A program made the position numbers and the translations under genes. A DNA stretch of 64,000 nt from an uncultured Chromatiales bacterium (GTDB lineage: Bacteria > Pseudomonadota > Gammaproteobacteria > DATFLL01), in contig CAZLQI010000006.1 of NCBI GenBank assembly GCA_964561765.1, forward strand, positions 3,297 to 67,296. The letters are read 5' to 3'. Of this stretch, positions 1 through 47,987 are shown one piece after another (the first letter of the stretch is position 1; each line of letters opens with the position of its first letter). Under the pieces are notes generated by a model. That model searched no databases, was not told where the DNA came from, and saw only the letters and a program-made list of their open reading frames with translations.

Positions 1-1568
1 CCCCATACCGCACGACCGTGGGAATCCTCCGAGCCTGTTTCCTCGAGCCAATGGCGATCATAGGACATGAAGTTGCGGAAGCGACCGGTCTGACCATTGA
101 AGGCATGACCCAGAAAACTCAGATAAATGGCGGCAAGGCCGCTCGGTGCTGAATCCAGAGGCTGGAGATCCTGTAGTATGACCGCGACGATCAACGCGCG
201 CGCATTATCGTCCACGCAATAGCCGTGCATCCGGTCTGGAACCGTGTACTTGGCGTGTTGCAACATACCTGTGTCATCGGTCATCCGGCGTAAATAGTCC
301 AGTTTGATCTCCGGTAGCCGTTGCTGGCGTAGTCCGAGGGTCTCCAGCCGGCGTTCGGGTACGTTCTTTCGCAACCGCTGGCGTTTGGCTTCTGCGAAGA
401 TGTCGAGATAGCGGCGGCCCACATTGCTCCAGACCATTTTTCGGCCATATTGGTAGGCTCTTTCCCGGATGGCACGGCACTCATCGGGATGATTCAGGAG
501 GTCGATGACTTCTCGTGCCAGGGCGATCTGATCCCGGAATGGGACCAGCCTGCCCCGATCATCGGCGAGCAATTCCTGAGCGTGCCAGTAGGGTGTGGAT
601 ACCACCGCTTTGCCCATCCCAAGCGCATAGGCCAGCGTACCGGAAATAATCTGTGCCTCGTTCAGGTATGGAGTGACATAAATATCCGCCGAACCAATAA
701 ACTCCAGCAGGTCTTCGTCGGTGACGAAACGGTCATGAAAAACGATGTGGTCCGAAACGCCGAGTTCTTTTGCGCGCATGTGAAGGCCGTTTCTGTAATC
801 CTCCCCCTGTTCAGCCTTGAGGTGCGGATGGGTAGCACCTACCACCATATAAATGACCTGCGGGTGAGCCTTCACAATCTCCGGCAGGGCATCGATGACC
901 ACCTCAATGCCCTTGCCCGGTGAAAGCAGACCGAAAGTCAGGATGATCTTCTTTCCGGATACGCCGAGCTTGTCCTTGTAGGCATCGGATTCGACAAACG
1001 GCACATCAAGAATACCGTGATGTATAAGGGCGATCTTCTCCTCCGGGACCTGGTAAATATCGCGCAGGAATTCGACTGAGCGTTCGCTCATCACTACCAA
1101 CCGGTCCGAGAACTCGGCAAGTTGCATCATGATGTGCCGGTCCTGAAGGTTCGGATCCTTCAAGATCGTGTGCAGAGTCGTCACCACCGGCATCTTGAGA
1201 TCACGCAACAGCTCGATGATAAAGCCGCCTCGTTTGCCACCGAAAATACCGTATTCATGCTGGAGACAGATCACATCCACCTGGTTAAGGTTGCATAAGT
1301 CGGCCGCCAGGCTGTATTCGTTCAGTTGACTCTGGTTGATCTCAAAGCGCACCTGGGACGGGTAGGGATAGCCTTCCGGGCGGTCGTTCATCGCGACCGC
1401 CCAACAGGCTTTGTCCGGCGCATTCAGTGCGATTGATTCAAGCAGGTGGGTGGTGAATGTGGCGATACCACACTGCCGGGGGAGGTGGTTGCCGATGAAG
1501 GCGATAGACTTGAGCGCCTCCCATTCCAGAGGTGAGCCTGTCGTGCCGAGATTTTCCATGGACGCCAT
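1..1568 (-). CDS. Family 4 (GT-B, RfaB-like) glycosyltransferase, N-terminal GT4 domain plus a C-terminal extension domain. It is 5'-complete but truncated at the window edge, so the C-terminus lies outside
   Basis: Reverse-strand translation from ATG at 1557-1559 or 1566-1568 gives MENLGTTGSPLEWEALKSIAFIGNHLPRQCGIATFTTHL..., continuing through GKGIEVVIDALPEIVKAHPQVIYMVVGATHPHL...ADIYVTPYLNEAQIISGTLAYALGMGKAVVSTPYWHAQELL. That is the typical GT4 EX7E region. It is followed by a further ~170 aa domain (DYLRRMTDDTGMLQHAKYTVPDRMHGYCVDDNARALIV...) that runs off position 1. Confidence 0.7.
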   Translation of the reverse strand, partial: MASMENLGTTGSPLEWEALKSIAFIGNHLPRQCGIATFTTHLLESIALNAPDKACWAVAMNDRPEGYPYPSQVRFEINQSQLNEYSLAADLCNLNQVDVICLQHEYGIFGGKRGGFIIELLRDLKMPVVTTLHTILKDPNLQDRHIMMQLAEFSDRLVVMSERSVEFLRDIYQVPEEKIALIHHGILDVPFVESDAYKDKLGVSGKKIILTFGLLSPGKGIEVVIDALPEIVKAHPQVIYMVVGATHPHLKAEQGEDYRNGLHMRAKELGVSDHIVFHDRFVTDEDLLEFIGSADIYVTPYLNEAQIISGTLAYALGMGKAVVSTPYWHAQELLADDRGRLVPFRDQIALAREVIDLLNHPDECRAIRERAYQYGRKMVWSNVGRRYLDIFAEAKRQRLRKNVPERRLETLGLRQQRLPEIKLDYLRRMTDDTGMLQHAKYTVPDRMHGYCVDDNARALIVAVILQDLQPLDSAPSGLAAIYLSFLGHAFNGQTGRFRNFMSYDRHWLEETGSEDSHGRAVW

Positions 1569-1591
1569 TTTATAACCGGTATTATTATGCA

Positions 1592-1601
1592 GGGGGGGGG
1601 G
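1592..1601. repeat. G10 homopolymer tract 24-35 nt upstream of the GT4 start codon
   Basis: aggggggggg g read directly at 1592-1601. Confidence 0.9.
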
Positions 1602-1903
1602 TGAACGATTCGATGTTGATACCCCGGTAGTCGAATGCTGCCAGCTTGAGAAGCGTACTGCCACTCGTCAGCTACCCTAGCTTACATGAATTCAAGGTGA
1701 TTGATAAGTTAAAAGCTCCCTACTCCAGGGCAAGAGCATATCAATTCCCTTGACATACCAAATCAGAGCGTAAGGTATCATTCATATTCGCAATCTTACG
1801 TTTTCATCTCATACTGGCTTTGCTGGGAAAAGGAGACGCGGCCGGGCTGTTTGTTCATTGGTGCGGGCGCGGGTCCTGCTCGGTTGAGGCAATAGCACCC
1901 CGG

Positions 1904-3304
1904 CTAATCGAGGTGGCGTGCGAGCAGGCCCCGTCGCCAATGGTCCTGCAACGTATCGATGGGTCGGGGTGCGGCACCCTGGGTGGCCGATGGGGGGAAC
2001 GCCAGTTGCAGGTGCACCCGATATCCGCCGCCGGGGACTTCCATCAGCACCCTGCCGTCTTCGGTCTCGATGTAGTCGGCGATCACGGTGAGATTGCCGG
2101 CCGGGCTGATCAGTTCGAGTCGATCGCCGACGGCGAACTTGTTTTTTGCCAGGACTGTGAGTCGATTGTGTTTCGCCTGATAGCCGGTGACTTCGCCGAC
2201 GAACTGTTGCCGGGTGTGTTCCGAGGCACCACTGAGGTAGTTCTGCGTGGCAGGGTGAGCGTGGCGCTGATAGAAGCCGTCGGTGTAGCCACGGTTGGCC
2301 AGCCCATCCAGGTGCTGGATCAATGCCGGGTCGAAGTCTCGCCCGGCCACGGCATCGTCTATGGCCTGGCGGTAAATCTGGGCGACGCGTGCAACGTAGT
2401 ACCAGGACTTGGTGCGCCCCTCGATCTTGAACGAGTCGATACCCATTGCGGTGAGTTGCCCGACATGGTGTACCGCACGCAGGTCACGCGAGTTCATGAT
2501 GTAGGTGCCGTGTTCGTCTTCGGAGATGGGCATGTATTCACCGGGACGTTCACGTTCCTCGATGAGGTAGACACGGTCGGCGCGGGGGTGGCGCGGGCTA
2601 CCGATACTGTCGGTCAACGGGTTGCGTAGCGCGCCCAATGCATCGAAGTCGATGTGTTGGGCGCCACCGGTGTCATCGGTCGCGGTGTCGTGTACCCGGT
2701 ATTCCCAGCGACAGGCATTGGTGCAGCTGCCCTGGTTCGGGTCGCGGTGGTTGAAATAACCGGATAGCAGGCACCGGCCCGAGTAGGCGATACACAACGC
2801 CCCGTGTACGAAGACCTCCAGTTCCATGTTTGGGCACCGCTGGCGGATCTCGGCGATCTCCTCAAGCGAGAGTTCGCGCGAGAGGATCACCCGCTGCAGA
2901 CCCAACGATTTCCAGAATTTCACTGCGGCATAGTTGACGGTATTGGCCTGCACCGAGAGGTGGATCGGGATCGTCGGCCAGCGCTCGCGCAGCATCATGA
3001 TCAGCCCGGGGTCCGCCATGATCAAGGCATCGGGTCCGGCCTCGATCACCGGCGCCATGTCGGCGAGGTAGGTCTTGAGTTTGGCGTTGTGCGCGATGAG
3101 GTTGCTGGTGACGTAGAATTTGCGGCCCAGGGTGTGGGCCTCGCCAATGCCCGTGCGCAGGGCGTCGAGGTCGAAGCGGTTGTTGCGTACCCGCAGACTG
3201 TAGCGGGGCTGGCCGGCATAGACCGCGTCGGCACCATAAGCGAAGGCGTAGCGCATGTGCGTGAGGCTGCCTGCGGGCAGGAGCAGTTCGGGTGTGTGGG
3301 CCAT
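1904..3304 (-). CDS. yegQ: Peptidase U32 family protein, YegQ/TrhP-type (prephenate-dependent tRNA U34 hydroxylase)
   Basis: 466 aa ORF; MAHTPELLLPAGSL...FYVTSNLIAHN...IMADPGLIM and the C-terminal region are characteristic of U32 collagenase-like YegQ; size matches E. coli YegQ (453 aa). Confidence 0.8.
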   Translation of the reverse strand: MAHTPELLLPAGSLTHMRYAFAYGADAVYAGQPRYSLRVRNNRFDLDALRTGIGEAHTLGRKFYVTSNLIAHNAKLKTYLADMAPVIEAGPDALIMADPGLIMMLRERWPTIPIHLSVQANTVNYAAVKFWKSLGLQRVILSRELSLEEIAEIRQRCPNMELEVFVHGALCIAYSGRCLLSGYFNHRDPNQGSCTNACRWEYRVHDTATDDTGGAQHIDFDALGALRNPLTDSIGSPRHPRADRVYLIEERERPGEYMPISEDEHGTYIMNSRDLRAVHHVGQLTAMGIDSFKIEGRTKSWYYVARVAQIYRQAIDDAVAGRDFDPALIQHLDGLANRGYTDGFYQRHAHPATQNYLSGASEHTRQQFVGEVTGYQAKHNRLTVLAKNKFAVGDRLELISPAGNLTVIADYIETEDGRVLMEVPGGGYRVHLQLAFPPSATQGAAPRPIDTLQDHWRRGLLARHLD

Positions 3305-5285: not shown

Positions 5286-7964
5286 GTGGCCAGGGACACG
5301 GGAGCGGAATGTCGCATGCAACGCATCCTCATTATCGAGGCATCCACTACGCTGTCGCGTGTGCTGGAAGCCCAGATCACACCATACTATCCGATCGAGA
5401 TAATACGCTCGCACCGCGCCGGGCTGGCACGGCTGGCCGAGTCCACCGAGGCCTTTAGCGCTGTCGTGATGGGATGGCCGGAGGCCTCCGATCCGGTGAT
5501 CGAGGAGTGCCAGGCGTACTTGTCCGAGCGGTCCGCCTGGCAGCATCTGCCCCTCCTGGTGCTGAGCCATTCGGTGGATACACCGAGGCTGGACTGGGTT
5601 GCAGGTCGCCCGCATGGTGCGTTGCTGCACTGGGATGATTTTCGTGAGGTCGCGGCATTGCTGGACGGATTGCTGGATGCGTCCCTGGCGCTGGCGTCCA
5701 CGGTCGCCGGTCGCGATGAGCGTATTCGCGTGTTGTTTGTCGATGATTCGCGTACCGCGCGCGTGAAAATTCGTCGTCTTCTCGAAGCCGAAGGCTATGA
5801 TGTCGAGACAGCAGTCGATGCCGATGAGGCCCTGATGCGGGCCAGGCATCGGCACACGCGGGCGTTGCCTGCAGAGGAGGGCGAGGCAGGCGTGGCCGGT
5901 GATGAGACGGTGGAGCGCGCGGGCTTTGATATCGCCATCATCGATTACTTTATGCCGGGTGTCACTGGCGACAAGTTGTGTCGGCGCCTGCGCGCCGATC
6001 CGCGTACCAGCGGCATTACCACCGCCGTTTTTACCAGTACCTACCGGGACCAGATCATCACTGATTCATTGGCCGCCGGGGCGGTGGAGTGCATGTTCAA
6101 GAACGAGTCCGATGCCCTGTTTCTGGCCCGTGTTGCCGCGATGAGTCGCACGGTGCGCAGTACGCGGCGTATCGAGCATGAACGCAGTCGTTTGCAGGGC
6201 ATTCTGTCCTCGGTGGGTGATGGGGTATATGGGGTAGATCGCAACGGCATGCTCACCTTCATGAACCCGGCGGCATTGCGTATTCTGGGTTATGCACCGA
6301 AACAGGGGACGGATTTTATCGGGCGCTCGTCGAGTGTGGTGTTTCACCCCGATGCGCCGACTGTGGAGGGAAGCAGGTGTCCGTCCTGTGTCCCGCGACA
6401 GAGCGTGAAGGCGGCGCTGGCGCAGGAGTCAGTGTTCACACGCCATGATGGCACGGCGGTGCCAGTGGAACTGACTCTCTATCCGTTGTCCATCGGGGGC
6501 CGGGTTGAGGGGGCGGTCATCGCTTTTCGCGACATCCGCGTGCGCAAGCAGCTCGAAGATGAGTTGAGGTGGCAGGCCAGCCATGATCCGCTGACCCGTG
6601 TGTTCAACCGTAAGTATCTCGAAGATGCGCTCGAGCAGGAAGTCCGGCGGTTGCGTCGTGGGACTGAGGCCGGTGCATTATTGTATCTCGACCTGGACCG
6701 GTTCAAATATATCAATGACACTGCAGGCCATGCTGCGGGCGATCGCCTGTTGATCGAGATTGCCCGGCATCTGACGGGGCGGCTGCGCGAGACCGATCTG
6801 CTGGCGCGTATCGGTGGTGACGAATTTGCGCTGATTCTGCGCGGGGTGGGGCGTGAGGATGTATTCCAGGTCGCCGACGAGTTCCGGGCCTTGCTGACCG
6901 GGTATACCTTTTCGTATGAAGGGCGCAACTACAAGATCAATGGCAGCATTGGTGTCGCGCTGCTCGATCGACATATCGACAGTACGGCCCAGGCCCTGGC
7001 CAATGCCGATATCGCCTGTCACATTGCCAAGGGTCAGGGCCGCAACCAGACACACGTATTCCAGGCGGAGTGTGACGAGCGGGTTGCCATGGACCTGGAC
7101 CTCGGCTGGTCTACCCGGTTGCATACCGCCCTCGAAGAGGGTCTGTTTGAACTGTATTTTCAGCCCATCATACCGCTGGTGGCCATTGCGCGCGAGGACA
7201 TGGTGCGGCCAGGGTTGGTCGATGGGCGCTGGCAGCAATGGGCGCACGCCCATCCGGCGCAGCCGCCGGTCTATGAGGTGTTGATGCGACTGCCTGATGC
7301 ACGCGGTGAACTGATCTCGCCCAATGCCTTTATCCCCACCGCCGAGCGGTTCAATCTCATGCCGGCGATCGACCGCTGGGTGGTTGCCCGGGCCCTGAAG
7401 AAACTCACCGCATTGCATCGCCAGGGTCGGCGTGTGGTGTTCAGTATCAATCTTTCCAGCCAGAGCCTGGTCGACGCCGAACTGGCGGGGGTGTTGCGTG
7501 ATGCGCTGGCCGAGCCGGGGCTGGATGCCTCCTCGGTGGTATTGGAGATCACCGAGGAGGCATCCAGCCGTTGCCTGGACGCCGCGCAGCATTTTATCGA
7601 GGAATTCAGCGCGCTGGGTTGCCGGTTCGCTATGGATAACTTTGGCAGCGGCTCTTGTTCCTTCACGCATCTCAAGCACCTGGCAGTGGATTTCATCAAG
7701 ATCGACGCTCTGCTTACCCAAAGTATCGTCCATGATGCCACGGACCTTGCCATCATCCAGTCCATCACCGATATTGCCCACTCGCTGAACAAGCTCGTCG
7801 TCGCTGAGGCCGTAGAGTCGCCCGATATCTTGCAGGCACTCGTCGGCAGCGGAGTGGACTTCGTGCAGGGACGCCACCTGTGCCCACCTATTGCCGCCCT
7901 GCCGGGTCTTTGCGAGGGGGGGGAGATCGCTGAGGCGAAGGTTCACTATCGCCAGCGCCAATGA
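5286..7964 (+). CDS. Multidomain c-di-GMP signalling protein: pseudo-receiver + canonical receiver (REC) + PAS + GGDEF + EAL. Likely true start is MQRILII at 5316
   Basis: REC2 has DIAIIDYFMPGVTGDK (phospho-acceptor Asp). REC1 has AVVMGWPEAS with Gly at the acceptor position. PAS around SRLQGILSSVGDGVYGVDRNGMLTFMNPAA. GGDEF intact (RIGGDEFALIL). EAL domain has EVL in place of EAL, DNFGSG in place of DDFGTG, plus EITEE and KIDALL. Confidence 0.85.
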   Translation: MARDTGAECRMQRILIIEASTTLSRVLEAQITPYYPIEIIRSHRAGLARLAESTEAFSAVVMGWPEASDPVIEECQAYLSERSAWQHLPLLVLSHSVDTPRLDWVAGRPHGALLHWDDFREVAALLDGLLDASLALASTVAGRDERIRVLFVDDSRTARVKIRRLLEAEGYDVETAVDADEALMRARHRHTRALPAEEGEAGVAGDETVERAGFDIAIIDYFMPGVTGDKLCRRLRADPRTSGITTAVFTSTYRDQIITDSLAAGAVECMFKNESDALFLARVAAMSRTVRSTRRIEHERSRLQGILSSVGDGVYGVDRNGMLTFMNPAALRILGYAPKQGTDFIGRSSSVVFHPDAPTVEGSRCPSCVPRQSVKAALAQESVFTRHDGTAVPVELTLYPLSIGGRVEGAVIAFRDIRVRKQLEDELRWQASHDPLTRVFNRKYLEDALEQEVRRLRRGTEAGALLYLDLDRFKYINDTAGHAAGDRLLIEIARHLTGRLRETDLLARIGGDEFALILRGVGREDVFQVADEFRALLTGYTFSYEGRNYKINGSIGVALLDRHIDSTAQALANADIACHIAKGQGRNQTHVFQAECDERVAMDLDLGWSTRLHTALEEGLFELYFQPIIPLVAIAREDMVRPGLVDGRWQQWAHAHPAQPPVYEVLMRLPDARGELISPNAFIPTAERFNLMPAIDRWVVARALKKLTALHRQGRRVVFSINLSSQSLVDAELAGVLRDALAEPGLDASSVVLEITEEASSRCLDAAQHFIEEFSALGCRFAMDNFGSGSCSFTHLKHLAVDFIKIDALLTQSIVHDATDLAIIQSITDIAHSLNKLVVAEAVESPDILQALVGSGVDFVQGRHLCPPIAALPGLCEGGEIAEAKVHYRQRQ

Positions 7965-18794: not shown

Positions 18795-18803
18795 CCCCCC
18801 CCC
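18795..18803. repeat. C9 homopolymer tract in the envC upstream region
   Basis: tattccccccccc g read directly. Confidence 0.85.
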
Positions 18804-22830: not shown

Positions 22831-22838
22831 CCCCCCCC
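22831..22838. repeat. C8 homopolymer abutting the gpsA start codon
   Basis: taga cccccccc atg read directly; no Shine-Dalgarno purine run. Confidence 0.85.
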
Positions 22839-25086: not shown

Positions 25087-26426
25087 ACCTGCGTGTGCGC
25101 CTCGCCCGCTGGTCGCTCAGTCGCCGTATGGTGCTCAGCGTCTCGCTGGTGTTGGCCGTGTTTATCGTTATTACCGCACTGGCCCTGGAGCAGGCCTTTC
25201 GCGAGAGTGCGCGCTCGGCCATGCACGGCAAATTGCTGGCCCAGGTGTATCTGCTCATTGCCGCGGCGGAGGTCGATGTCGGCGGCAAGGTACACATGCC
25301 CAGGACCCTGGCCGAGGCGCGTTTCGATGTGCCAGGTTCGGGCTTGTATGCCGAGATCAGTAATGCACGAGGTCGAGTGGTGTGGCGTTCGTCTTCCACC
25401 CTGGGTCAGGCCTTCCCGTCGCTGGCCCGCCTGGGTGTTGGGCGCGAACGCTTCACGACACGGCGCCAGGCGGGTCGGGCCTTCTTTGTGCTGGGTTACG
25501 GTGTGCGCTGGAACACCGCAGGGAGATCCTACCCGCTGACCTTCGCCGTGACTCAGAATCAGACCGATTATCGGGCTCAGCTCAACCGGTACCGCAACAG
25601 TCTGTGGGGCTGGCTGGGGGGGATGGCGGTGTTGTTGCTCATCGTCCAGGGGGGGGTGTTGCGCTGGGGGTTGACCCCCTTGCGTGATGTGGCGCGGGCG
25701 GTGGCCGACATCGAGGCCGGTCGTACGGCGCGTATTACCGGCGTGTATCCGCGTGAGCTCAAGGGCCTGACGGACAGCCTCAATGCACTGCTCAAGCACG
25801 AACATGCACAGCAGACCCGCTACCGCCATGCGCTGGCCGATCTGGCTCACAGTCTGAAGACGCCGTTGGCCGTGCTGCGCGGTGCGCCGAACGTGGCCGA
25901 GACGGCGTTGATCGAACAGATCGATCAGATGGACCGCCTGGTGGCCTACCAGTTGCAAAGGGCGGCAACGGCGGGGCGCAGCGGCTTGCGACCACCGATA
26001 GCGCTTGCTCCTCTGCTCCAGCGCCTGTTCGACTCGCTCGACAAGGTCTACCGTGACAAGGGTGTGCGTGCCGAGTTGGATATGGAAGATGCACTGTGCG
26101 TGCGGGTCGACGAGGGCGATCTCATGGAGTTGTGCGGCAACCTGTTCGACAACGCCTACAAGTGGTGTCGCACACAGGTTCAGGTCGGTGTTGCCCTGCA
26201 GGGCGGGACGCTGGATATCGCTGTGGAAGACGATGGTCCGGGCATTGCCGAGGTGGATGCCGGGCGCCTGCTGGGCCGGGGGGTGCGCGCCGATGCCTCT
26301 GTGGCAGGCCATGGTATCGGACTGGCCGTGGTGCGCGACATCGTGCAGGCCTATGGCGGTCAGTTGCGTATTGAACGCACCCCGCAGGGCGGGGCCCGTT
26401 TTCATATCACCCTACCACTGGGTTAA
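25083..26426 (+). CDS. phoQ: Sensor histidine kinase, PhoQ-like (periplasmic sensor + HAMP + HisKA + HATPase)
   Basis: Two TM helices flank a roughly 140 aa periplasmic domain; H-box HALADLAHSLKTPLAVL resembles PhoQ; HATPase G-boxes; 4-nt overlap with the RR gene. Confidence 0.75.
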   Translation: MNLRVRLARWSLSRRMVLSVSLVLAVFIVITALALEQAFRESARSAMHGKLLAQVYLLIAAAEVDVGGKVHMPRTLAEARFDVPGSGLYAEISNARGRVVWRSSSTLGQAFPSLARLGVGRERFTTRRQAGRAFFVLGYGVRWNTAGRSYPLTFAVTQNQTDYRAQLNRYRNSLWGWLGGMAVLLLIVQGGVLRWGLTPLRDVARAVADIEAGRTARITGVYPRELKGLTDSLNALLKHEHAQQTRYRHALADLAHSLKTPLAVLRGAPNVAETALIEQIDQMDRLVAYQLQRAATAGRSGLRPPIALAPLLQRLFDSLDKVYRDKGVRAELDMEDALCVRVDEGDLMELCGNLFDNAYKWCRTQVQVGVALQGGTLDIAVEDDGPGIAEVDAGRLLGRGVRADASVAGHGIGLAVVRDIVQAYGGQLRIERTPQGGARFHITLPLG

Positions 26427-32788: not shown

Positions 32789-33159
32789 TTTCGCACCATC
32801 TGCCCGCCGTTTACCCGGTCACGCTGCGGGACCATTTTCCCAATGCCGAATTGACGCTCAGCGTTATCAGCCACTATCAACGCGGCACTCCGGAAGACCG
32901 GGTGGATCGGGTGCATGTCGTGCCCGGTCGCAAGGAAAAATCGAAGGTACGGGCGACACTGGCGGCGTATCGGGACCTGGGTGAGCAGGATGTATTGTTT
33001 GATCTGACGAGTACCGGCGCGATAGCGGTGTGTCAGAAGTCGAGGGGGTTGAGGCCGTAGTCGTGCGCCTGCTATCGGTGTGATGTCTCTTGCATGAGCT
33101 GGCTGGGACGTACCAGCGGTGGTGTCACCGCAAGGGAGGCCAGGGGGGGGCGTTTATCC

Positions 33160-33420
33160 GACTAACTGACAACTTCACGCCACTAATGGGGAGTAATATC
33201 GTATATATTCATATTTTTACACCAAATACACATATAAAGTCACTGATTGAGTTGTTTTATCTCACCATTGCGAGGCTGTCCGTGGGGTAATACGTATAAT
33301 ATTGATTATTTATAATAATGTGGATGATCGATCGATTTATTCTGGAATAAGAGGCCACATTATTGTAAGTGAATGCGTAAAAATACCCACATTGTGGGCT
33401 TTCTGTTAGGAAAGAAGGCG
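33160..33420. other. AT-rich (roughly 30% GC) island with nested inverted repeats and a G9 tract, upstream of the SPFH gene
   Basis: G9 at 33142-33150. 10-nt IR arms aataatgtgg (33314-33323) and ccacattatt (33355-33364) around atcgatcgat. cccaca t tgtggg at 33386-33398. Confidence 0.6.
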
Positions 33421-36106: not shown

Positions 36107-36234
36107 GGCCGGCTAGAGGGTGCAGCGGCCCCCTCCCAGTGTGGCGTAACCACCGTGATGCGTTCAGGGGGGGGCGGATCTGCGCGTTATCTCCACGGCG
36201 AAGTGGGTAAATGCCGGATGAGCTGCGCCCTCGG

Positions 36235-46412: not shown

Positions 46413-47987
46413 TTGCGTCAATCTGTTGCATACTGCCTGTCTTATCTGCGTGCGGAAAACCAGGCACATGTCCTGCGTAACAGCCTGATCGGTATAGAAA
46501 AAGAATGTTTGCGTGTGAATGTCTCAGGTGGAATTGCACAGACACCACACCCCCACAGCATGGGCGCGGCCCTGACTCACCCCTACATCACCACCGACTA
46601 TTCCGAGGCCTTGCTCGAATTCATAACCCCCCCCTCCCCGGAGGCGTCAGCGCCACTGGACTTTCTGCGTGATGTCGAGAAGTTCGTCTATGCACGGCTC
46701 GATAATGAGATCCTCTGGGCATCGAGTATGCCCTGCGTACTGGCTGGCGGAGAGAGTATTCCTGTTGCCAGGTACGGACGTTCAAATGCTGGCATGATGA
46801 AGATGGTCTATCGTCGCGGGCTGGGTTATCGCTACGGCAAGATGATGCAGGTTATCGCTGGAGTGCATTTCAATTTTTCTGTGCCGGAGGCCTTCTGGCC
46901 CGTCTTGCAGCAGATGGAGCAGGACCCTGGCGACCTGCAGGCGTTTATCAATGCTCGCTACCTCGCCATGATCCGTAACCTCCAGCGTGTCGGCTGGTTG
47001 ATCACCTATCTGTTCGGTTGCTCCCCCACGGTATGCAAATCGTTCATGGATGGCCTGCACACCGCCCTGCCCGAGTTTAATGCCAATACCTTCTATGAAC
47101 CCTATGCCACCTCCCTGCGCATGGGGGACATTGGTTATCAGAACAATCGCGAGGGTGAGGTTGGCATCAAGGCCTGCTATGACGACCTAGACAGCTATAT
47201 CGCCAGTCTGCGCTGTGCTATCCAGACGCCTTGCGAGGAGTATGCCCGCATCGGGGTCAAAGTCGATGGTGAATATCGTCAGCTCAATGCCAATATCCTG
47301 CAGATCGAAAACGAGTACTACACGACAGTGCGTCCCAAACAGATACTCGACGACAATGAGAAGCCGACTCTGGCGCTCAAGCGGCGCGGCATCCGCTATG
47401 TGGAACTGCGATCGCTCGACCTCAACGCCTTTGAGCCCCTGGGTATCAACGAAGATCAAGTGTATTTCCTCGAAGCCTTCATGCTTTACTGTCTGCTGGC
47501 GGACAGTCCGCCGATCGGGCGCGCGGAGGCCGACGAGATCGACGCCAACCAGAATGCTGTCGCCCACCGTGGGCGTGCGCCAGGCATGCGGTTGCGCCGC
47601 AACGGGGCCGAGTTGGCACTGCGCAACTGGGCGGTGGAGGTGGCCGAGGCCATGGTGGATATCTGTGCCTTGCTTGACGAGGGGCAGGCGCAGATGCCGT
47701 ATACCCAGGCGTTGGGTGTACAGCGGGCGGCGATCGAGGACCCGGAGTTGACCCCCTCGGCACGCATGCTCCAGCAGATGCGGGAAAACCGCGAGGGCTT
47801 CTATCACTTCACCATGCGTATGTCGCAAAAACACAAACGCTATTTCGATACACTGACGTTGTCGCCTGAACGCGAGGCCTTTTTCCAGACCGAAGCCATG
47901 GCCTCCGTGCAGCGACAGCGCGCGATGGAAGATGCCGACTCCGAGAATTTTGACGATTACCTTGCACACTATCTGGACCAGCCCTGA
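46413..47987 (+). CDS. gshA: Glutamate--cysteine ligase (E. coli type)
   Basis: 524 aa; ...ALTHPYITTDYSEALLEFITPP... aligns with the GshA N-terminus; TTG start. Confidence 0.85.
   Translation: MRQSVAYCLSYLRAENQAHVLRNSLIGIEKECLRVNVSGGIAQTPHPHSMGAALTHPYITTDYSEALLEFITPPSPEASAPLDFLRDVEKFVYARLDNEILWASSMPCVLAGGESIPVARYGRSNAGMMKMVYRRGLGYRYGKMMQVIAGVHFNFSVPEAFWPVLQQMEQDPGDLQAFINARYLAMIRNLQRVGWLITYLFGCSPTVCKSFMDGLHTALPEFNANTFYEPYATSLRMGDIGYQNNREGEVGIKACYDDLDSYIASLRCAIQTPCEEYARIGVKVDGEYRQLNANILQIENEYYTTVRPKQILDDNEKPTLALKRRGIRYVELRSLDLNAFEPLGINEDQVYFLEAFMLYCLLADSPPIGRAEADEIDANQNAVAHRGRAPGMRLRRNGAELALRNWAVEVAEAMVDICALLDEGQAQMPYTQALGVQRAAIEDPELTPSARMLQQMRENREGFYHFTMRMSQKHKRYFDTLTLSPEREAFFQTEAMASVQRQRAMEDADSENFDDYLAHYLDQP

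Follow-up and report, generated by a model that had tools for sequence, protein, structure and literature searches.

The 64-kb stretch of DNA analysed in this study (hereafter the window) begins with the 5' part of a gene for a GT4-family glycosyltransferase (GT), which lies on the minus strand and is cut off by the window start after 522 codons, and which is preceded on the same strand by a gene for a U32 peptidase (Table 1). Upstream of the GT gene, the plus strand carries ten consecutive G residues bordered by A (1591) and T (1602), that is, C10 on the sense strand of GT. The preliminary description of this DNA had reported a ten-G run here, and direct reading finds it to the base. An uninterrupted G/C run of about 8 nt or more is capable of slippage, and the tract, at ten, is long enough for slipped-strand mutation, as had been claimed. 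The distance of 24 nt to the start codon given in that description is right for the ATG at 1568, which lies 23–24 nt from the tract edge. However, the codon at this position is AAG in most relatives, and the next in-frame ATG (1559), which is common to them and lies 32 nt beyond the tract, is the conserved start. An N-terminal extension of GT or a small upstream ORF spanning the tract was considered and rejected, because an in-frame TAG stands between the site and the ATG in the closest relatives L085, L086 and L090, and the four-base expansion described below would also shift the frame; the tract is therefore non-coding. Two orthologs, L010 and L015, have ATA at the position where the conserved ATG aligns in all the others; a GGGAG-like Shine-Dalgarno sequence closely precedes this ATA, which could be a non-canonical start or point to a shifted one.

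Table 1. Positions in the window of the C10 tract, of the genes and promoter-like elements around it, and of the other G/C runs of at least 8 nt.
Feature	Position	Strand	Basis and remarks
5' part (522 codons) of the gene for a 792-aa GT4-family glycosyltransferase; candidate starts ATG 1568 and 1559	1-1568	-	Pfam; identity to P0001
Upstream leader/promoter region, homologous to other GT loci	1569-1705	-	blastn; alignment A1
AATAAT, -10 candidate in relatives, overlapping CATAAT	1581-1586	-	PWM
CATAAT, candidate -10 hexamer, 18 nt from TCGAAT owing to C10	1584-1589	-	PWM
Homopolymer, C10 on the GT sense strand, G10 on the plus strand	1592-1601	-	Direct reading; same in L001-L004
TCGAAT, candidate -35 hexamer, 3/6 to TTGACA	1608-1613	-	PWM scan; weak
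TTATCA-N17-TAAGCT, alternative promoter-like element	1679-1707	-	PWM, 6.2 bits; TAnnnT conserved
U32 peptidase gene, upstream of GT and on the same strand	1904-3304	-	Pfam
G8, coding, last 16 codons of GGDEF-EAL gene	7916-7923	+	Direct reading; Pfam
C9, intergenic, 14 nt after iPGM stop, about 130 nt upstream of envC	18795-18803	+	Direct reading
C8 abutting the gpsA ATG, polymorphic, lineage-specific	22831-22838	+	C7 in L091 and L096
G8, coding, histidine kinase gene	25649-25656	+	Direct reading
G8, intergenic, about 270 nt upstream of SPFH/Band-7 gene	33143-33150	+	Direct reading
G8, intergenic, between DsrE-like and TetR-family genes	36167-36174	+	Direct reading
C8, coding, gshA (codons for ..FITPPSP..)	46627-46634	+	Direct reading

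In the visible part of GT, Pfam recognises Glycos_transf_1 (PF00534, 71 bits), Glyco_trans_1_4 (PF13692, 64.8 bits) and Glyco_transf_4 (PF13439, 35.3 bits), with both GT-B Rossmann halves above the gathering thresholds, which assigns the protein to GT4. The full-length protein P0001 is 100% identical across these 522 residues, and its ~400 C-terminal residues match no Pfam family; a profile search relates this C-terminal domain to the uncharacterised Yersinia protein YPO2471 (PDB 7tem, E=1.3e-14). A GT4 gene with an extra C-terminal domain directly 3' of the tract, as the preliminary description had it, is thus what lies there. The closest solved structures of the catalytic half are GDP-mannose-dependent transferases of the PimA/PimB type. 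A signal peptide and a hydrophobic or membrane segment were looked for in GT, and neither was found. In MAGs classified in several gammaproteobacterial families the protein has 85–96% identity, which falls to ~55% in Desulfobacterota, Planctomycetota, Verrucomicrobiota, Acidobacteriota and even an archaeal MAG. In 65 of the 84 loci GT is followed by a gene for a GH130 phosphorylase, and in 38 by a second GT4 gene with a fused ManC/cupin domain; GH130 mannoside phosphorylases belong to intracellular mannoside metabolism (PMC7660257). GT is a cytoplasmic, conserved enzyme, and the missing signal peptide and membrane segment, the high conservation and the link to GH130 make it look unlike a strain-variable surface-glycan gene; a variable surface or interaction function, as expected of a gene under phase control, was not found for it. 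The 'surface glycosyltransferase' of the preliminary description is not supported on these grounds.

The GT gene together with its 137-nt leader shows 91–96% DNA identity to MAGs labelled Thiolapillus and others, whereas the housekeeping proteins of the window organism have only distant relatives (best identities 83% for GpsA and 78% for iPGM, none higher), and the genes upstream of GT differ among close GT relatives. This suggests that the module of GT4, GH130 and GT4-ManC genes, with the leader, has apparently been shared horizontally among marine gammaproteobacteria.

The upstream regions were compared among 80 orthologous GT loci from species-representative genomes, to which look-ups and a pattern scan added another six. 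The ~137 nt upstream of ATG 1568 are kept in relatives, and the homology ends at window 1705; blastn alignments of L085, L086, L089 and L090 with the window stop at 1704–1705. In 13 of the 14 alignable leaders the tract site is a 6-nt interrupted C-rich motif with collinear flanks, and the 14th leader (L017), more divergent at this site, reads CCTACG. Most orthologs have CCCACC; CCCTCC, CCTACC, CCCATC, CTCACC, CGTACC and CCCCTT/CCCCTA also occur. The ortholog sites are thus 4 nt shorter than C10, and the 6-nt motif is present also in L085 and L090, of which the DNA is 95–96% identical to that of the window. C10 is therefore a derived state. It came about by loss of the interrupting base and an expansion by four bases, at less than about 5% nucleotide divergence. 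A non-exhaustive pattern scan of metagenome contigs returned 6-nt versions of the site only. The contig VAOX01035587.1, which is known to bear the pattern with a 10-nt gap, was missed although another contig of the same assembly was returned, and either the collection or the scan is therefore non-exhaustive.

A structured leader RNA or riboswitch was rejected, as no conserved structure was found in the leader (RNAalifold -1.5 kcal/mol, 8 pairs), its folding does not surpass that of shuffled sequences (single-sequence z-score +0.5), and Rfam gave no match at the gathering threshold or at E<=1. The conserved block TTGAATTCATGTAAGAT (window 1679–1700 on the minus strand; columns 5–20 of alignment A1) contains a TAnnnT hexamer and an ATG-TAA 'start-stop' pair. 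In the Woeseiaceae MAG L028 (about 1104–1113), the GT ortholog starts with ATG CCC CCC CCA, i.e. with C8 in codons 2–4, and its sister MAGs have the same prolines in mixed codons. One single C8 is found among the 79 orthologous upstream regions against about 0.4 expected, which is within chance.

The preliminary description had placed the tract between the likely promoter and the start codon. It does lie 5' of the start, but the best conserved candidate promoter, itself a weak one, has the tract inside the spacer between its -35 and -10 hexamers. In the PWM scan, TCGAAT-N17-AAYAAT was found in L006, L008, L016, L085, L086, L089 and L090, and TCGACT-N17-AACAAT in L011. Although a weak match, it is the sole promoter-like arrangement found recurring among relatives, in which the 17-nt spacer contains the C-rich motif and AAYAAT lies about 20 nt before the ATG. 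After the four-base expansion, AATAAT in the window is 21 nt away from TCGAAT and overlaps with CATAAT at 18 nt, the two hexamers being 3 nt apart. The window version, TCGAAT-N18-CATAAT with C10 in the spacer, scores a weak 5.4 bits; scores like this are common by chance, and the candidate promoter is only weakly predicted. The consensus promoter scan reported nothing on the minus strand, where TCGAAT fails its 4-of-6 rule. When tract lengths of C3–C15 were modelled, the PWM score was 4.4–6.4 bits for C3–C11, with 6.4 bits both at C9 and at C6, and dropped at C12 and above. The promoter response predicted by this model would be graded, with no OFF state until C12 or more.

Two other promoters were considered. 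A sigma-54 promoter, suggested by TGGCAG motifs in the leader, was rejected, as inspection by eye found the GG-N10-GC spacing to be absent, and the GG is not kept in L006. The plus-strand element TGGACG-N18-TATTAT, which ends at 1588 and from which transcripts would begin within the G-run, was set aside: such sites are no more frequent than chance (1 vs 0.6 expected), no gene on the plus strand follows it, and its sequence shares the AT-rich hexamers named above. Around the other G/C tracts, the promoter scan found none that is overlapped by a site, and the counts were at chance.

A different reading, which is possible although we do not consider it probable, is that the tract is a neutral homopolymer in the transcribed 5' UTR, the length of which has no meaningful effect. 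In this case, transcription would start from the upstream element TTATCA-N17-TAAGCT, putting the tract about 80–85 nt into the 5' UTR, or would come from the U32 peptidase gene; read-through into GT is possible, since the terminator scan found no minus-strand terminator-like site between the two genes. The PWM score of the upstream element (Table 1), the conservation of its TAnnnT hexamer (TAAGAT, TAGGAT, TACAAT and TAAACT in alignment A1), the extension of the conserved unit to 1705 and the tolerance of a 4-nt insertion before a highly conserved gene would all fit with this. However, the upstream homology is lost at different points in L005, L007, L009 and L014, and yet a hexamer whose second base is A and whose sixth is T is retained in these loci, or replaced by another such hexamer, 20–24 nt before the ATG. 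Because a -10-like hexamer persists there despite the loss of the upstream block, we argue that the proximal site is the core promoter.

Exact-protein look-ups gave four other assemblies of the GT region (L001–L004), two of them NCBI metagenome assemblies and two Logan single-run assemblies, which are 99.97–100% identical to the window; further look-ups with P0001, P0361, SecB and MlaC gave no new assemblies or variants of this region. The heterogeneity of tract length, by which the preliminary description proposed to recognise a switch, was not seen among these five assemblies and two haplotypes: all have C10, a comparison of consensus assemblies that has low power and would miss a minority of other lengths, and the Logan contigs run straight through the tract. 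The second haplotype, seen in VAOX01035587.1 and in one of the Logan contigs of SRR6439355, is ~99.9% identical to the window, with 11 SNPs in 12.5 kb. The only indel in these 12.5 kb is at gpsA, where the tract is C8 in the window and in L087, and C7 in L091 (7950–7956, reverse complement) and in L096 (VAOX01035587.1; 1581–1587), i.e. in two independent assemblies. Thus, homopolymers in this lineage change length on very short time scales. The C10 at GT, the C9 at 18795, the G7 at 25616 and the G8 at 25649 are unchanged in the second haplotype. Moreover, the C9 at 18795–18803 is unchanged in L087 and L091, the G8 at 7916–7923 in L001–L004, and the coding tracts show no variation in the two haplotypes compared. 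The gpsA site in the nearest relative L088 (80% identical DNA) reads gcctgccctcATG, and its C8 is therefore likewise derived; for the intergenic tracts, the non-coding comparison is limited to gpsA, since the best iPGM relative, at 78% identity, is too distant. Gene callers extend gpsA to 366 aa in the C7 haplotype.

All the other assemblies break inside the GT gene, where the contigs of L001–L004 end at window positions 751, 1027, 1461 and 1469. The contig VAOX01046850.1 (L090), from a second organism in the same metagenome, encodes a GT with 96% identity and likewise stops at 751, so that the breaks are ascribed to collisions in the assembly graph and not to instability of the tract.

That the run is an artefact of sequencing or assembly, or a product of pure chance, is hardly tenable. 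The artefact is rejected because the window and the four other assemblies, from at least two pipelines, agree on C10 with collinear conserved flanks. As to chance, at least one G/C run of 10 or more is expected 0.09–0.25 times in the window under Markov models of order 1–5 (P about 0.1–0.2), and a single such run in 64 kb of 59% GC DNA, taken alone, is not significant. However, runs of 8 or more occur in excess and mostly between genes. There are eight of them in the window, compared with 1.6–3.4 expected (Markov order 1–5; P 0 to 0.013). Five are intergenic, compared with 0.64 expected from the intergenic base composition (~10 kb of intergenic DNA). The comparable loci of relatives (451 kb) have 1.3 such runs per 64 kb. 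The run-length spectrum declines steadily as far as length 7, with 15 runs of length 6 and 4 of length 7, and then rises to 6 of length 8. Within this 64-kb window, long simple repeats are therefore in excess over composition.

Of the other tracts listed in the preliminary description, the C9 at 18795–18803, the C8 at 22831–22838 and the G8 at 36167–36174 were found as given, and the 'G9 at 33142–33150' is in fact a G8 at 33143–33150; three more runs of 8 or more, at 7916–7923, 25649–25656 and 46627–46634, are all coding. The tracts adjoin or lie in gpsA, envC and gshA, the genes for a histidine kinase and for GGDEF-EAL and SPFH proteins, and that for a TetR-family regulator, and no concentration in genes for surface or environment interaction was found. 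Evenly common tracts had been named in advance as evidence against a switch, and this is partly what the window shows, for similar runs are frequent in its 64 kb beside and inside housekeeping genes. In the N-terminal part of the histidine-kinase gene, a G7 (25616–25622) and the G8 (25649–25656) lie 27 nt apart and encode Gly-Gly pairs; the contig VAOZ01109580.1 reaches as far as window 25613, 3 nt short of the G7. A frameshift at the G8 of 7916–7923 would alter only the C-terminal tail of the response-regulator/PAS/GGDEF/EAL protein. A long slippage-prone C8 inside a core gene such as gshA (glutamate-cysteine ligase) is unusual.

Considering these results together, we assume, at a probability of roughly one half, that C10 is a young slippage-prone repeat that arose within a lineage-wide accumulation of G/C homopolymers and that would at most tune the GT promoter in a graded manner. 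A 6-nt motif of the CCCACC type would have lost its interrupting base and grown by four bases in this lineage, inside the conserved promoter-proximal leader of a horizontally shared GT4 gene. The tract would most likely lie in the spacer between the weak -35 TCGAAT and the overlapping -10 hexamers CATAAT and AATAAT, where replication slippage could change the spacer length and thereby tune GT transcription stepwise; the position of the promoter, the effect on expression and the rate of slippage are what we infer here from the alignments and the promoter model. Since the promoter, as predicted, would work at any length between about C5 and C11, a graded effect is to be expected and not an ON/OFF one, and the excess of recent G/C homopolymers points to a lineage that tends to form such runs or to put up with them, and not to a gene-specific switch.

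The original proposal was that of a dedicated contingency switch, in which slippage of G10 at high frequency would turn GT transcription ON and OFF and produce subpopulations differing in their glycans. We regard this as unlikely. The tract length is within the hypermutable range of known systems, the tract lies 5' of GT and plausibly in a promoter spacer as in Treponema pallidum tp0126 (see below), its expansion is recent, a sister tract at gpsA is polymorphic, and the Woeseiaceae ortholog has independently acquired a C8 in codons 2–4 of the same gene. Against these points stand the invariance of C10 in five assemblies and both haplotypes with Logan contigs passing straight through it, and the nature of GT as a cytoplasmic, extremely conserved enzyme tied across phyla to GH130 and GT4-ManC genes, the GH130 phosphorylases being part of intracellular mannoside metabolism (PMC7660257). 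In addition, the promoter model shows no abrupt OFF state around C10, comparable tracts stand beside housekeeping genes, and the lone C8 among the orthologous upstream regions is at chance level. The effect of the tract on expression is thus probably graded at most, and a dedicated phase switch is not supported.

It could also be assumed that the ten bases are a fixed-length element, selected and maintained, for instance because it brings the -35 back into phase with the stronger CATAAT once the gene had been acquired horizontally, or because it serves as an unstructured leader rich in C. C10 sets TCGAAT 18 nt from CATAAT, and it is invariant while a shorter sister tract varies; this invariance of the longest tract means that its length could be under selection, which would imply a function. 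However, there is no obvious gain in such a length, since the optimal 17-nt spacing would be reached at C9 and had been provided by C6 with AATAAT, and the comparison covers two haplotypes. We therefore hold selection for a fixed length to be very improbable.

Tracts of this kind are known from several bacteria. In Campylobacter and Helicobacter, intragenic poly-G tracts control glycosyltransferases of strain-variable surface glycans by frameshift. The window shares with them a G/C run of at least 8 associated with a glycosyltransferase gene, but here the tract is outside the ORF, as the in-frame TAG in relatives indicates. In the fim genes of Bordetella pertussis and in opc and porA of Neisseria meningitidis, a poly-C/G stretch lies in the promoter spacer and slipped-strand mispairing steps the promoter strength; these genes encode surface antigens of host-restricted pathogens, and their tracts vary between isolates. 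The homopolymer of the window would likewise lie in a -35/-10 spacer, here a candidate one, whereas the window comes from an uncultured gammaproteobacterium of marine or vent type and no tract variation was seen at C10. The poly-G promoter tracts of T. pallidum are the closest known systems. In tp0126 of this species, a poly-G between -35 and -10 sets the 17-nt spacing; for the T. pallidum tracts, transcription starts have been mapped, 7–11 G occur within isolates and length-dependent promoter activity has been shown (PMC7864442). Its tp0126, tprE/G/J and tprL resemble the window in having a G/C run of ~8–11 nt in or near the promoter, upstream of the start, and many such tracts are scattered through the one genome (PMC7864442). 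However, the T. pallidum genes encode putative outer-membrane proteins and the window gene a cytoplasmic conserved enzyme, and heterogeneity has been measured in T. pallidum, while in the window the promoter is predicted and no length variation was seen at C10. The window tract is real and of a known kind.

Reversible homopolymer frameshifts also occur outside the classical contingency genes, such as the glpK 7C tract of M. tuberculosis and the inlA poly-A of L. monocytogenes (bioRxiv 10.1101/717272, PMC11898584, PMC2831843); glpK 7C is reported as a true reversible switch in a metabolic gene (bioRxiv 10.1101/717272). These precedents bear on the coding C8 in gshA and the coding G8 in the kinase gene of the window, although they are coding tracts with demonstrated variants and those of the window are invariant in the two haplotypes compared. 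Since a metabolic gene, too, may carry a homopolymer that acts as a genuine reversible switch, the housekeeping context of the sister tracts is compatible with a function. In an extended form, one might assume that recent, length-polymorphic G/C homopolymers are distributed genome-wide, at promoters, at start codons and at the ends of genes, as a contingency-locus-like architecture and that G10, in the promoter spacer of the horizontally acquired GT4/GH130 mannoside module, stochastically tunes this module across the population, which we find doubtful. If true, such an architecture would exist in a free-living or vent-associated chemotroph, beyond the host-restricted pathogens where it is known.

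In the preferred reading, that of a young repeat with a graded effect, modulation of the promoter by the tract would add a non-pathogenic lineage from the environment, and a carbohydrate module of the cytoplasm, to the known cases of homopolymer tuning of expression, and the excess of young runs, one of them polymorphic, would suggest relaxed repair or selection for mutable sites. If there is no such modulation, the locus is a caution that a G10 beside a glycosyltransferase is insufficient to call phase variation. In either case, calls of phase variation need the gene family, its conservation, the tract density of the genome and population data to be checked first. Furthermore, between the G8 at 33143 and the SPFH/Band-7 gene, the ~220 nt at 33180–33400 are strongly AT-rich in a window that otherwise has 59% GC.
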